From Leucoraja ocellata (Eukaryota), in the NCBI GenBank assembly GCA_036785375.1, contig JAWMAR010000039.1, positions 1,426,001-1,490,000 on the forward strand: a stretch of DNA of 64,000 bases, written 5' to 3'. Made by a program: the position numbers and the translations under genes. Shown piece by piece: positions 8,681-62,126 of the stretch (the stretch's first letter is position 1; each line of letters begins with the position of its first letter). The notes under the pieces were generated by a model. It was not told the DNA's origin. It did not search any database and saw nothing but the letters and a program-made list of their open reading frames with translations.

Positions 8681-9289
8681 TTTTGGCTGGAGCCGCCAGC
8701 AGCAATTTTTAGATTATGCTTTCCGATTCAGCAAGAGACATTCTGGCACATAACACATGAACCACCTTATTCTTGGGACGTGGTAAGCCTGAAATCTCCG
8801 TGGTTGAAGCTAGTTCTGCCAGTTAGAGAGGCGTCTATCTGCACATCCTGAATTGTCACTGCCTCGACTGTTTCCAGCTTACCAGTCTTGTTGCAGAGTG
8901 TTGATCTTCGGGGCTGTCAGTCTTGCGGCTCTGATTATTCCTCCACTTGGAGTCTGTGGTCCAGTAGTCCTTTCTTTGTGGTGGGATGGCTGCTTTAAGT
9001 CCAACTGCTGCCTCGTTATGTCCTACTCCAGATGGAGTGGGATGGATTTTTGTTCAGTTGTGGTTATTCTCCACTGAGTGTTGCAGAATAGCAGGGAGGG
9101 CGGGCTGCACTAAGTCAGTCAAGGCATGCTGGGTCTCGCAAAGACGAACAGAAGGCAGAATTGGAAGCTCCATGAACTCTGCTCTTTCCCAGTGAGCAGC
9201 AAACGTGCAGGCTTTGTTTACCGCCTTTACTCGCTGGGTTCCTGGCAGCATGTCACTTGTAAAGAAAAGTACACTCGTTGGCCTTCCTC

Positions 9290-9450
9290 TTCTTCTTCTT
9301 CTTCTTCTTCTTCTTCTTCTTGCGTATGGCGTGCACAGCCTAAAGTTGCAGGACAACTTGTTCTATTTGATCTTATTTGATTGTGCACACCAGGTTGATT
9401 GCATTCGTCGAAACAGGGCGGACCACGTGAAGGTTGCAATCTCCCACCCC
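9290..9450 (-). mobile_element. Full-length short non-autonomous retroposon with HDV-like ribozyme head and (AAG)n tail; probably Ingi/Vingi-type
   Basis: Perfect 11-bp TSD TGGCCTTCCTC (9279-9289 / 9451-9461); minus strand ends ...GCCATACGC(AAG)n; no tRNA A/B boxes; clade assignment is inference. Confidence 0.85.
9397..9450 (-). ncRNA. HDV-like (CPEB3-type) self-cleaving ribozyme, minimal P4
   Basis: GGGGUGG(P1)-GA-GAUUGCA(P2)-ACC(P3)-UUCACGU(L3)-GGU(P3')-CCGCCCU(P1')-GU-UUCGA-CGAA(J4/2, catalytic C)-UGCAAUC(P2'); G1-U wobble at the cleavage site; activity untested. Confidence 0.88.
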
Positions 9451-9579
9451 TGGCCTTCCTCCATCCTGATCAAATACTTGTGTCTCAGTTGTAGAAACCA
9501 TTCTGTGTGCAAAGAAACCTTTGTTTTTGAGTAATGCGCAGACCTCAGGCTTGAAATGGTTCATTGCGGGCTGAGTAAG

Positions 9580-11510: not shown

Positions 11511-11875
11511 GTGCAAGAAGGAACTGCAGATGCTGGCTATACACGGAAGATAGGCACAAAATTCTGGAGTAACTCAGCGGGACAGGCAACATCTCGGGAG
11601 AGAGGGAATGGGTGACGTTTTGGGTCTCGACCCTTCTTCAGACTACTGGGTGACGATGACGGAAGGCTCTCGACTCGAAACGTCACCCATTCCTTCTATC
11701 CAGAGATGCTGCCTGTCCCGCTGAGTTACTCCGGCATTTTGCGTCTAGCTAATGGGCGACGTTTTGGGTGGAGACCCTTGTTTATTCTGATGAAGGGTCT
11801 CGACCCGAAACGTCACCCATTCCCTCTCTCCAGACCTGCTACCCGTTCCGCTGAGTTACTCCAACGTTTTGTGTT
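11511..11875. mobile_element. Composite Penelope-derived element (alternating -/+/-/+ hammerhead-bearing units)
   Basis: TSD TAATTATTGCAAC at 11498-11510 and 11878-11890; intact core CTGATGA-A-GGGTCTCGACCC-GAAACGTC at 11787-11814. Confidence 0.8.
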
Positions 11876-13914: not shown

Positions 13915-14107
13915 GATAGACACAAAAAGCTGGAGTAACTCAGCGGGACAGGCAGCATCTCTGGAGAGAAAGAATGGGTGACCCTTGGTCTCGACCCAAA
14001 ACGTCACCCATTCCTTCTCTCCAGAGATGTTGCCTGTCCCGCTGAGTTACTCCACCTTATTGTATCTATCTTCGGTTTAAACCAGCATCTGCAGTTCCTT
14101 CCTACAC
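13915..14107. mobile_element. Palindromic Penelope-derived unit
   Basis: Arm ggagtaactcagcgggacaggcagcatctctggagagaa..aatgggtga is inverted as tcacccattccttctctccagagatgttgcctgtcccgctgagttactcc; imperfect flanking duplication atcct(ca/ag)cagtg. Confidence 0.75.
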
Positions 14108-31640: not shown

Positions 31641-33003
31641 TAGTAAGCTGTGAGGTCAGATGAAGAGACCTCCCCCCCCCCACCACTCCACACTCCCTCC
31701 CCTCCCCACAATATAGGAGTGTGCTTCGGAGTCATAGTGTTTTTTTTTTAAAGATCTACGTCCTTCAAATCCAAAAAGAAACCAAGAAGATGGTAGTGAA
31801 AGATTTAGGCTGGCATGCATTTCGACCCATTCACCTGGCCCAATGAACAGAGTCCCTGTGGGTGGGGAGAGTAGTGGAGAGCTGGAGTTGAGCATAATAA
31901 TGACAGCAGGAGCAGCGGCCTGGTATGGCACAGCACGGCACCCAGAGGCACGGGAACAATTAATCAGCGTATGTGTTTCCGGAATCCCAAATCCCTACAA
32001 AGGAAAATAAACGTTTGCCATTCATTATTTTATATTCTATAATAGAATCAGAAGTGGAAATAGCACAATTGTTCCTGGATAGGAGGCCGAGGGAAGGATT
32101 GTGCATGTAGGTTATGGATGCTCCTTGCCCAGCCTTAACATACAAAGAACAGGACAGCACAGGAACTGGCCCTTCGGCCCACGATATCTGTGCTGACGTG
32201 ATGCCAAGTTAAACTAATCTCATCTGCTTGTGCCGTGGGGAGTAATGCTGTACATGTGCACCAGCAGACAACCTTCATGCTCCTGTTGCACAAGCTATTG
32301 ATGCTCAGGACTCATGTTCCAGGGGACCTGTGCAGTAGCACTGTCGAAGCAGAACTCACCCTCGTGCCATGACTGCCTCTTAGATCATTAGAATTCTCCT
32401 AACACCCCACACACTTGTAGCTTTAGAATATAATCATGTTTGGCACAGAACATCATCTGTGCTAATCATTCCCTATACTCTGCTCAACTCTCATTCTGAA
32501 ATGAGAAAGGACAAAGGCCAGAACACATCCTGTCACTTTTCATTAGGTGGTAACAGAGGGGAATTAAACACTATTGTCTTTACAAAGTGTCAATGCAAGC
32601 CTAATGCTCCACAGTTTAAATAATGATGCATCTCATGAAAGAGGAAAGGCCAAGCTGAGGATAGATGTTGTGAGCTGCTTAGAGAGCCAGGCGATGGAAG
32701 CTGTCAGTGTTGATGGTTTTAACTTTTGTGTTTCACAATGTATTACGTTTCAAAGCCAGATTTCATTATCATAATGTTAACACTTTTTGTTTTTGTTTTT
32801 ACATTTCATCTTTTTACGGTTGTTTAAAATTAGAAGCCTTTCCCCAGGCTGCCTCAAAATGTTCTTTACTTAATTTTTTAGAGCTATAACGTGAAACCAG
32901 GCCCTTTGGCCCACCGAGTCCATGCTGGCCATCAATCACCTGTTCACACTAGTTCTGCACACGGGCAATTTACAGAGGGCCAATTAACCTGCAAACTCGC
33001 ACG

Positions 33004-33257
33004 ACACGGGAAACCTCACCCGGACCGGACACGGAAAGGATTGACAGATTGATAGCTCTAACTCGATTCTGTGGGTGGTGGTGCATGGCCGTTCTTAGTT
33101 GGTGGAGCGATTTGTCTGGTTAATTCTGATAACGAACGAGACTCCCACATGCTAAATAGTTACGCGACTCCTGAGCGGTCAGCGTCCAACTTCTTAGAGG
33201 GACAAGTGACGTATAGCCACACGAGATTGAACAATAACAGGTCTGTGATGCCCTTAG
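33004..33257 (+). pseudogene. Retroposed 18S rRNA fragment (254 nt, 3' major domain)
   Basis: acacgggaaacctcacccgg...ggtggtgcatggccgttcttagttggtggagcgatttgtctggttaatt...aataacaggtctgtgatgcccttag is eukaryotic 18S sequence; CpG-type decay (ttctgataac, ggtcagcgt); no adjacent rDNA. Confidence 0.95.
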
Positions 33258-33363
33258 GCAGGAACGGGGTATTGATTGTGGATGATCAGCCATGATCACA
33301 TTGAATGGCGGTGCTGGCTTCAAGGGCCGAATGGCCTACTCCTGCACCTATTGTCTATTGTCT
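33256..33363 (+). mobile_element. CR1 3'UTR and tail fused to the 18S fragment
   Basis: aggcaggaacggggtattgattgtggatgatcagccatgatcacattgaatggcggtgctggc...ggccgaatggcctactcctgcacctattgtctattgtc, matching 6003-6120. Confidence 0.9.
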
Positions 33364-46402: not shown

Positions 46403-46567
46403 TGTGTAAGAAGGAACAGCAGATGCTGGTTTATACTGAAGATAGACACAAAATGCTGGAGTAACTCAGCGGGTCAGTTCTACAGAGATGTTGCCTGTCC
46501 CAGAGTAACTCCAGCATTTTGTGTCTATCTTCAGTGTAAACCAGCATCTGCAATTCCTTCCTACACA
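46403..46567. mobile_element. Fold-back Penelope-derived unit
   Basis: ~65-bp arms gtgtaagaaggaacagcagatgctggtttatactgaagatagacacaaaatgctggagtaactc and its near-exact reverse complement. Confidence 0.8.
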
Positions 46568-57034: not shown

Positions 57035-57491
57035 CAATAGTGAGTGATGAGAGACACAAAATGCCAGAGTAACAGGCAGCATCTCTGGATAGAAGGAATG
57101 GGAGACGTCTCCCATCCCTTCTATCCAGAGATGTTGCCTGTCCCGCTGAGTGACCCCAGCATTTTGTGTCTATCTTCAGTGTACACCAGCATTTGCAGCT
57201 CCTTCCTACACATGGCTAGTGAGGAGAGATGTCCGCAAAAGGCAAACTTGGCAAGTCGAGTGCACTGATTCAAGGTGGGCTCAGTGAGTGGAAAGTTGGT
57301 TTGCAACCTTGGGAGGGTCACTTGTTTTTGGATCAGTATTTGATTTTGAAGCATCCATCTGTTTGACGTTATTTTACATGTACATATCATGTGAATTTAA
57401 ATGCCAGTGAAAGAAGTATAACCCAAGATGGTCGAACCAAATCCTGTGTTCGGTTTATATAGGTCTGAGTCATAGTTTAACAAATGTGGAG

Positions 57492-59834: not shown

Positions 59835-60133
59835 TCAGCAGGTCAGGCAACACCTCTGGATATCAGTCTGAAGAAAGGTCCCGACCCAATACGTCACCTA
59901 TCCATGTTCTCCGGGGATGCAGCCTGACCTGTTGAATTACTCCAGTATTTTGTGTTTTTCTTTGGCATAAACCAGCATCTGCAGTTCCTTGTTATTACAT
60001 CTCTGGAGAACATGGATAGGAGACATTTTGGTTTGGGACCCTTCTTTCTATTTGGGACATGCTTCACCCATTCCTTTTCTTCAGAGATGCTGTCTGACCC
60101 GCTGAGTTACTCCAGCTTTTTGTGTCTATCTTC
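59835..60133. mobile_element. Cluster of Penelope-derived units in mixed orientation
   Basis: gtctgaagaaaggtcccgacccaatacgtcacc core; repeated gatgc.g.ctgacc.g.tga.ttactccag arms. Confidence 0.7.
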
Positions 60134-60549
60134 TGAACATTTTAATTTGTTTGTTCAGTGAATCCACCATGGTCCAGTAAGTTGTATTTTACTGGTGGTT
60201 ACCCGTTACATCTAAGTTGTGGCTACTGCATCATTCTGGCTGGTTATGTACATTATTGGGGGTGTCCTGTCAGTCAGTTAAACCCTCAATATTGAAGCAG
60301 TGAATTCAGGCTGCCATTTACTGAGTAGCTGGCGAGAATATGACTTTTCCATTCAAACTCTCCATCACAGGGGCATTGTAGAGAGGGAACATGCCTGGGC
60401 ATTGACTGGGTGGGGCATTCCTGTCGTGTGGAGACACCAGAAGTGACTACTTGGCAAGTCTGCCCCCTCCCCCCCCCCCCACAACCGTTCCCTATTTACC
60501 CCCCTCCTGTGGATACATCTCCCCCCTCTATCTCTCCTTCCCCTCCCCT

Positions 60550-60946
60550 CCCGGGTACCAGCGGAACGAGCAGCGATGGCGGGAGCGCGCCTGGCTGTGT
60601 TGACGGGAGCGCGCCTCCCCCTGCGCGGCCCCGCCTGCAGTGGAGGCTGCGCTGGCCGGCACTGCGCTCTCGGAGCGGAGCAGCGCGGCGGCTCCGGCTC
60701 CGGCTCGCACACCCGCAGCGGGGAAAGGGAGCGGGCCGGCTCCGGCTCCCGGACCATGTGTGGCCCCCGGCCCTGAGGCCCCTGCCCTGCCAGTCCTGCC
60801 CCGTCCCGTCCCGGACAGGACCGGACCCTCCTGCACCGCGCTGTGGGACGGCGGCTGCTGACAGCATGTGGACACCCTGCACACACTCTTGATGCTCCCC
60901 GCAACCCGCCCGTCCAAATATGATGAAATGGCAGCCCCGGAAGAAG
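60550..60946 (+). promoter_or_regulatory. CpG island with probable first exon of an unidentified gene
   Basis: Highest CpG/GC density in unique DNA of the window, GC box ccccgcc, donor-like GAAG|GTGAGA at 60946/60947; ATGs at 60920 (MMKWQPRKK, phase 0) and 60928 (gaaATGg, MAAPEE, phase 1). Confidence 0.6.
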
Positions 60947-60954
60947 GTGAGAAC

Positions 60955-61300
60955 GGGGGGACAAGAGGGGGAGAGGGAGCAGAGAGGGGGGAGAGAGGGA
61001 GAGAGAGACAGGAGGGGAGAGGGGGAGAGAGACAGGAGAGGGGAGAGAGGCAGGAGAGGGGAGAGAGGCAGGAGAGGGGGAGAGGAGTAGACAGGAGATG
61101 AGTGAGAGGTAGAGACAAGGGAGAGGGGAAGACGGGGAGAGGGAGTGAGAGAGAGTGACAGGACGGGGACGGGGTACAGGCAGGCGGGGAGCAGGGACAA
61201 GGGAAGACTGGGTAGAGAGGAGAGGGAGAGAGAAGGAGTGAGTGTGGGAGGGAGAGTGGGAGAGGGAGGTGACGGGGAGAGAGGGGTTGGAGAGTGGGGG
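60955..61300. repeat. Polypurine (GA-rich) low-complexity tract with ~18-bp tandem units
   Basis: Repeated caggagaggggagagagg units; explains the spurious S/P/L-rich ORFs on the minus strand. Confidence 0.85.
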
Positions 61301-61942
61301 GTCACCCAGTTTCCGTGTGGGACAGTGCCTGTCACTCACCCCAAGCGGTGCTCCTGCCGGGGACGATGCTATCTTCGCGTTGTCACTCTGAACGTTTTGT
61401 ACTCTTGTGATCTATTGCTGCGGAAAACTTTTTTTGTGCCTTTAAAAAAAACCCCAAAAAACCCGTGTTGCCATTCTGCGTGAGAATGTGCCGGCGCGGA
61501 GCGAGCAGCGGTGTAACTGTGTACACCCTGCCTGTCCACACTGACTGTGCGTGTCAGTATTGGTGTCGCCGACACGCAGCCGGCTGCTGTGGCCGGACTG
61601 ACCGACAATTGTTACAGAGTCTGGTGTCTGTAAATGACCCGGGATGGATGCCAGTGTGATCAAAACTGTAGGCGACAGTCAGTGGCGAAGTCCAGGTCTA
61701 GGTGGGAGAGTTGCCCAGTCTGTGGCAGCTAGTGAGTGCTGCCTGCACGCAGTGTTGCTGCCAATGTCCAGCCCAATCCCCCCTCCCCACCCCCAAAAAC
61801 TCAGAGTACAATTATTGTTATGTCGTTCCTTTTATTCACTATGTGTAACGCTTTATGCACTGGTTGTGCCTGTTGTAAGTGAACGCGACATGCGTGTAGA
61901 TGGTGTTGAGGATACAGACACGTCTGACAGTTTTATGTGCAA

Positions 61943-62126
61943 TGTGCAGGAAGGAACTGCGAATGCTGGTTTACACCAAAGAGAGACACAAAATGCTAGA
62001 GTAACTCAGCGGGACAGGCAGCATCTCTGGAGAGATAGAGAGGGAGAGGGAGAGAACAATTCCTTCCCTCCAGAGATACTACCTGTCCCGCTGAGTTACT
62101 CCAGCATTTTGTGTCTGTCTTCAGTA
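61943..62126. mobile_element. Palindromic Penelope-derived unit with TSD
   Basis: Inverted arms acacaaaatgct.gagtaactcagcgggacagg / cctgtcccgctgagttactccagcattttgtgt; TSD TTATGTGCAA at 61933-61942 / 62127-62136. Confidence 0.8.

Follow-up and report, generated by a model that had tools for sequence, protein, structure and literature searches.

The window, the whole 64-kb stretch of DNA analyzed here, carries on its minus strand a short retroposon (9290–9450), hereafter the mini element, whose 161 bp comprise a 129-nt body (9322–9450) and a 32-nt tail of AAG units (9290–9321). A perfect 11-bp target-site duplication (TSD) flanks the element, with its 5′ copy at 9451–9461 and its 3′ copy at 9279–9289 in minus-strand orientation, and G1 of the element (9450) is the first base inside the duplication. 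The initial annotation had described this same layout, from the length and the perfect TSD to the position of G1 at its inner edge and the (AAG)n end, all of which is confirmed in the sequence. The body begins with a 54-nt HDV-like ribozyme fold (9397–9450), predicted to cleave just 5′ of G1 in the register of the CPEB3 ribozyme (PMC4836649), and continues into a 3′ structured domain (9327–9392), in which a 10–11-bp outer stem encloses a 7-bp hairpin. This domain is more stable than most of its shuffles (z = –2.73; 4 of 200 equally stable), and the outer stem is also kept in an older subfamily despite a different middle; the 3′ stem-loop may serve as the binding site for the LINE protein. The last segment (9290–9326) joins a Vingi-like terminus (..ACG-C) to the (AAG)n tail.

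Elsewhere in the window, an isolated 278-nt fragment of 18S rRNA (32994–33271, plus strand; Rfam 208.9 bits) adjoins repeat fragments and is probably a retroposed rRNA piece, and MITE-like self-complementary repeats of 150–200 bp lie at 11548–11750, 13915–14070, 46403–46567, 57045–57216, and 61939–62125. The nearest named relatives of a CR1-type fragment occur in skates and rays (85–90% identity), pointing to a batoid cartilaginous fish as the probable host, and the segment 60300–61400 is GC-rich (0.57 in 60001–62000), possibly marking a CpG island or a gene start.

An HDV-like fold without P4

The parse of the head given in the initial annotation (P1, P2, P3, L3, J4/2, HDV pseudoknot order, 54 nt) holds in every sequence claim. 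P1 (5′ strand 9444–9450, partner 9415–9421) has 7 bp, including the G1·U36 wobble and one internal U5·G32 pair, and is separated by a 2-nt J1/2 from P2 (5′ strand 9435–9441, partner 9397–9403), which consists of 7 Watson–Crick pairs with its 3′ strand ending at 9397. A 3-bp P3 and the 7-nt L3, UUCACGU, with U20, C22, and G25, occupy 9422–9434. On the 3′ side follow G37–U38, the P1.1 partners, together with a 5-nt loop in the place of P4 (9408–9414), and J4/2, CGAA (9404–9407), with the putative catalytic C44 at 9407. With reference positions for the HDV-like core taken from PMC4836649, the head displays the defining features of an HDV-like ribozyme: the nested double pseudoknot of P1, P2, P3, and P1.1, the wobble at G1, U20·G25, C22–G37, and C-N-A-A in J4/2. 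Because a loose HDV descriptor matched once on both strands of the 64-kb window, at this very site, and never in 40 dinucleotide shuffles, the fold is more than chance.

Two descriptions in the initial annotation need adjustment. P4 had been taken as reduced to about 5 nt; the five nucleotides are present, but the segment does not fold, and P4 is absent rather than short. By the lack of a P4 helix, which is the criterion applied here, the head belongs with the minimal HDV-like ribozymes. Naturally occurring members of this P4-less class are active in vitro, and phages account for nearly 99% of the known examples (PMC10879173). The label “CPEB3-like” fits the register and the single-stranded core, but not family membership. 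Specifically, the mini element and CPEB3 share the register of positions 1–38, L3, GU, and J4/2, and differ in P3 and most stem pairs, and a comparison with Rfam that included the suggested CPEB3 and HDV models gave no ribozyme match for the mini element at the gathering cut-off or even at E ≤ 10, which places it outside RF00622 (≥35 bits). In ViennaRNA, which considers nested folds only and no pseudoknots, the 54-mer was not more stable than its shuffles (z = +0.92), and competing folds arose both for the whole element and together with the upstream flank of the window copy. The 54-nt head probably cuts its own 5′ end, and self-cleavage is likely to be active in source copies; counting against activity, certain well-folded trypanosome SIDER ribozymes are inactive (PMC4035085).

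The UUCGA loop could also be read as the B-box of an ordinary Pol III SINE with a head that merely looks like a ribozyme, since TTCGA resembles the B-box core. Yet the flanking G and C of the B-box consensus are missing from the mini element, and copies at many loci carry runs of 4–5 T in this loop, which stop Pol III. Neither ARAGORN nor Rfam detected a tRNA, the head shows no derivation from tRNA, 5S, or 7SL RNA with the accompanying A and B boxes, and the absence of the descriptor match from the 40 shuffles likewise argues against a fortuitous fold. A Pol III origin is accordingly very improbable, in agreement with the initial annotation.

A dispersed family with precise 5′ ends

Across the host assembly (3.44 Gb), a 25-nt 3′ motif of the mini element has 3,428 exact matches (reversed control, 0) and a 21-nt ribozyme motif has 3,366 (control, 0; usable solely as a count). 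Both numbers are lower bounds on copies, with fewer unique loci, as flanks are duplicated in the assembly (4 of 30 and 6 of 30 loci were dropped as duplicates). BLAST returned 984 candidates, and the 40 that were scored are 95–100% identical. To avoid favoring full-length copies, 5′ ends were scored at the 30 loci listed first for the 3′ motif; 26 of these are non-duplicates, with a mean identity to the window copy of 93%. The TSD ends within 1 nt of G1 in 20 of these (12 exactly, 4 with a G that could lie on either side, and 4 with one extra base); four of the remaining six start further inside and are 5′-short, and two have no TSD. The TSDs vary in length (9–13 bp), and together with the simple-repeat tail, the dispersed copies, and some 5′ truncation, they identify the family as non-LTR retroposons, products of target-primed reverse transcription.

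Loose ends in contigs from four independent public runs, representing four organisms, also peak at 9450 with unrelated flanks; these are contig sequence ends, not RNA ends or a sign of expression. Per run, the counts at 9450 versus neighboring bases are 352 versus 46 and 69, 236 versus 64, 36 versus 9, and 66 versus 16. The family is present in other species, with holders in six organisms. The inference of a young, non-autonomous retroposon in the initial annotation is supported by this dispersed family; its 5′ ends do pile up at G1, and the 3,428 exact matches rule out a single-copy element.

Within the family, an older subfamily retains the head and the last 24 nt and differs in the middle. 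Two copies of different subfamilies (L004 and L018) lie ~700 bp apart in opposite orientation. Among three further loci (G000 C37:931038, C192:4501447, and C339:1887374), two matches have the head inverted relative to the 3′ end, in a twin-priming-like arrangement, and one 3′ end lies downstream of telomere-like repeats.

The commonest copy variants, G45U (16–50% of depth) and G32A (9–17%, with the P1 pair kept), lie at tolerant positions, against 2–4% for C44U. G45 is the subfamily-variable second base of J4/2, at which autonomous Vingi-type heads likewise carry U or C, and the loop replacing P4 varies in length among copies. C44 shows little variation, although its low C44U share is weak evidence of selection, because G-to-A exceeds C-to-U at every CpG in the four-run contigs. 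At core position G25, 6 of 24 sampled copies carry A (1–6% of depth in the contigs of the four runs), which may reflect decay of a CpG or the spread of a lineage whose ribozyme was weak. Also counting against activity, just 6 of the 26 copies retain every one of the 18 pairs and 7 core residues; by extrapolation, several hundred copies would retain an intact-looking core if this proportion is representative.

Vingi-type LINEs and the probable origin of the head

An Ingi/Vingi RT motif, used as a probe, matched the assembly 150 times (control, 0), and the matches fall into roughly eight groups by sequence. The 3′ end was obtained for six of the eight groups sampled: the protein ends in a zinc finger, little or no 3′ UTR follows, and the element closes with ..CG and an AAG- or A-rich tail. 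The terminus and tail of the mini element resemble these six ends. The full-length relatives P0016, P0017, and P0023 encode an APE endonuclease (EN) and RT in a single ORF and no RNase H; in the host's own genome, EN, RT motif, and stop span ~2.9 kb, as pieced together from parts and not from one whole copy. An endonuclease and RT without RNase H correspond to the definition of Vingi (PMC13708176), and in a visual comparison the 5′ ends of these autonomous LINEs look much like those of four Vingi elements in Repbase.

Four stretches of 260 bases upstream of endonuclease starts were inspected for 5′ heads, and in three of them an HDV fold is present whose P4 region is long. That of family B (L120) scores 50.4 bits (E = 2e-12) against Rfam CPEB3, beyond the cut-off of 35 that delimits RF00622, and the other two lie below it (L122, 5′-cut, 29.1 bits; L121, 18.5 bits). 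The family-A stretch (L119) has no ribozyme in its 260 bases; this copy may be truncated, or its head may lie within 60 further nucleotides.

Several other observations concern these LINEs. A metagenome search recovered Vingi copies, all without 5′ ends; contigs L113–L117 hold a young Vingi family with 81–82% amino acid identity to family B and the same tail type, and resemble contigs of another animal, making this family a candidate for horizontal transfer. At the family-A 3′ end (L105, L097), the stop codon and short 3′ UTR hold 11 nt identical to positions 8–18 of the mini element, perhaps by chance. Endonuclease-like matches with 31–33% identity to P0016 recur at ~1.8-kb spacing (G000 C2779, C4832, C2518, C1503, and C2566), which suggests a tandem LINE-derived unit.

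The stem pairs of the mini element were compared with those of the sampled heads in a fixed register, because MAFFT misaligned P4, and the J4/2 of family B was taken from the Rfam alignment. On this count, 9 of the 17 stem pairs are changed on both sides with pairing kept: 3 of 7 in P1 versus family B, 4 of 7 in P2 versus family E, and 2 of 3 in P3 versus family J. Common to all are the spacing, the GU, and L3 or a one-base variant of it, the Rfam CPEB3 consensus and the heads of families B and E having exactly the same L3. The mini P3 is shared neither by any of the three sampled heads nor by any of the four from Repbase. Aligned by eye in the same register, the mini head and the family-B head are identical at 31 of 49 positions, and the 5′ part of the mini element is homologous to a LINE 5′ end, as in the bipartite non-autonomous LINE derivatives known as SIDEs. 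Given the shared spacing, L3, and GU and the compensated pairs, the mini element is best read as a Vingi head fused to a Vingi-type tail, its ribozyme having arisen when such a head lost P4.

Compensated pairing also bears on the possibility that the head is a ribozyme relic that now serves Pol II as an internal promoter or binds a protein, with transcription start at G1 setting the 5′ ends. Such a role has precedent in trypanosomes, in which Pr77 of L1Tc/ingi acts as a promoter as well as a ribozyme and certain SIDER heads fail to cleave (PMC4035085), and it could accommodate the loss of P4 and the G25A change in 6 of 24 sampled copies. However, pairing in all three stems survives two-sided changes, which would be needless for a DNA promoter, and the subfamily variants lie at the free J4/2 base and in the loop; we regard a purely vestigial head as unlikely. 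Because the related Pr77 combines both functions, the mini element may contain a promoter, despite the term “promoter-less” in the initial annotation, also under the favored reading of a self-cleaving head.

A parent with near-identical ends was not found by five probes, whose matches were inspected by eye (50; 100 of 210; 58; 69; and 100 of 128) and each of which would overlook at least roughly half of the conceivable parents; what they recovered were copies with indels, truncated copies, and the older subfamily. The 3′ part of the mini element matches the Vingi-type families in terminus and tail type, with its last 20 nt found in none of the six sampled 3′ ends and its 3′ stem-loop in none of the families probed. 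This leaves some room for an active ribozyme-headed SIDE whose parent and motor is RTE or Ingi and not Vingi, as both clades give bipartite derivatives and carry HDV-like ribozymes (PMC5786205). Nevertheless, L3, GU, the 1–38 spacing, the terminus, and the tail all match Vingi-type families, the set compared in this genome, and the head register also matches the Repbase Vingi heads; an RTE or Ingi parent appears improbable. A PF14529 search for a partner was rejected, because the LINE that gave its top matches, I/Nimb-like with two ORFs, does not resemble the mini element; that LINE is young, and several of its 1,268-aa frames are open (L061–L090).

Relationship to the mammalian CPEB3 ribozyme

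The four Repbase 5′ ends (Vingi-2_Gav, Vingi-4_Crp, Vingi-2_SPur, and Vingi-1_BF), as printed in the supplement of PMC5786205, have the same architecture by eye. Vingi-2_Gav, also compared by eye, agrees with the Rfam CPEB3 consensus at 38 of 40 nucleotides over positions 2–41 and at all of the last 14, and the CPEB3 P4 stem is present in SINE2-1_AMi from alligator, too. Because only about six nucleotides of the HDV-like fold are invariant (PMC8256844), the identity of Vingi heads and CPEB3 in the free stems probably reflects descent and not convergence, and the mammalian ribozyme probably derives from a Vingi head. The transposon origin of CPEB3-type ribozymes hinted at in the initial annotation thereby gains support from autonomous Vingi LINEs (the 50.4-bit head and Vingi-2_Gav), not from the mini element.

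The CPEB3 ribozyme has been described as unknown outside mammals (PMC8233481), and its domestication from a mobile element has already been published as a general idea (PMC7761336). The sections of PMC5786205 covered here list six other clades as ribozyme-bearing and do not term the printed Vingi ends ribozymes, and HDV-like ribozymes reported from lancelet and sea urchin (PMC8256844) may be Vingi heads already assayed under other names. The journal literature searched yielded no link between CPEB3 and Vingi, nor did the articles inspected on Vingi and ribozymes make one. In its fullest form, an account for which we hold the arguments evenly balanced, the CPEB3 ribozyme would have been domesticated from the 5′ end of a Vingi LINE or of a short element derived from one, a link so far unpublished, with the Vingi heads of lancelet to crocodilians and rays as its outgroup. 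In rays, one lineage of this head would have shrunk to 54 nt, active without P4 and carried by a 129-nt retroposon, scattering hundreds of intact self-cleavage sites across the genome and offering a living model of intronic ribozyme birth.

As far as could be checked, three points are novel: a high-copy vertebrate retroposon with a P4-less ribozyme, the occurrence of ribozymes in the Vingi clade, and how nearly the Vingi heads match CPEB3; ribozyme-headed short elements with a LINE tail (SIDEs, RIME/NARTc, and Vingi derivatives) were already known. The proposed descent would supply the best-studied human ribozyme with a concrete origin and outgroup, open to testing, and Vingi would join the LINE clades with 5′ ribozymes. 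Moreover, Vingi-1 is under development for gene writing with RNAs that retain the native 5′ UTR (PMC13708176), and a self-cleaving Vingi head, if real, would matter for the design of such templates.

A model for mobilization

The direct observations comprise the copy number, the TSDs and tail, the precision of the 5′ ends, the HDV-type pairing, and the HDV-like heads of autonomous Vingi-type LINEs in the same genome. Beyond these, we consider it likely that the mini element is a SIDE of the Vingi clade with a P4-less self-cleaving head, mobilized in trans. Derivatives of Vingi with internal deletions have been described (PMC5786205). The element would be pared to the two signals needed for mobility, the ribozyme head and the 3′ stem-loop with its tail. 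A host transcript would read through a copy, or an internal Pol II promoter may drive transcription, and the 54-nt ribozyme would cut before G1, leaving the compact pseudoknot as the RNA 5′ end. A Vingi ORF protein, with its APE endonuclease, RT, and C-terminal zinc finger, would then bind the 3′ stem-loop and tail in trans, and target-primed reverse transcription of the mini RNA would create the 9–13-bp TSD. Because cleavage regenerates the head, every full-length copy may again act as a source. The 129-nt body would, on this model, set the minimal cis signals for trans mobilization, and the family would be a non-phage example of a P4-less ribozyme, available in thousands of naturally occurring variants.

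Comparison with known systems

The mini element corresponds to the CPEB3 ribozyme (RF00622) in numbering, with G1·U36, U20·G25, U21, C22, A23, U26, G37, and U38 at equivalent positions (PMC4836649), and differs from it in the P1, P2, and P3 pairs and in the lack of P4; the family-B head passes the RF00622 cut-off, whereas the mini element does not. In its nested double pseudoknot and the short L4 loop replacing P4, it resembles the minimal HDV-like and theta ribozymes (PMC10879173), but nearly 99% of those minimal HDV-like ribozymes occur in phages, often beside tRNAs, whereas the mini motif heads a vertebrate retroposon. SINE2-1_AMi (PMC5786205 supplement) is likewise short, with a Vingi 5′ piece that reads as the ribozyme region and a Vingi-like end. 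Unlike the mini element, which has no tRNA head and has kept its core, it bears an upstream tRNA head and is altered at G1, in L3, and in P3, as would be expected had the addition of the Pol III head been followed by loss of cleavage.

Parallels also exist among mobile elements that retain only LINE end signals. R2 SIDEs (PMC3414825) have no ORF, consist of LINE 5′ and 3′ signals only, carry a ribozyme at a precise 5′ end, and are mobilized in trans, and in their case cleavage has been demonstrated. RIME, NARTc, and SIDER (PMC4035085) are similarly ORF-less with LINE end signals, with active cleavage in several SIDERs, and the Vingi-1_EE derivatives of hedgehog (cited in PMC5786205) are short and bipartite. 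Overall, the mini element probably works like the R2 SIDEs, RIME, NARTc, SIDERs, and Vingi derivatives, and belongs with them.
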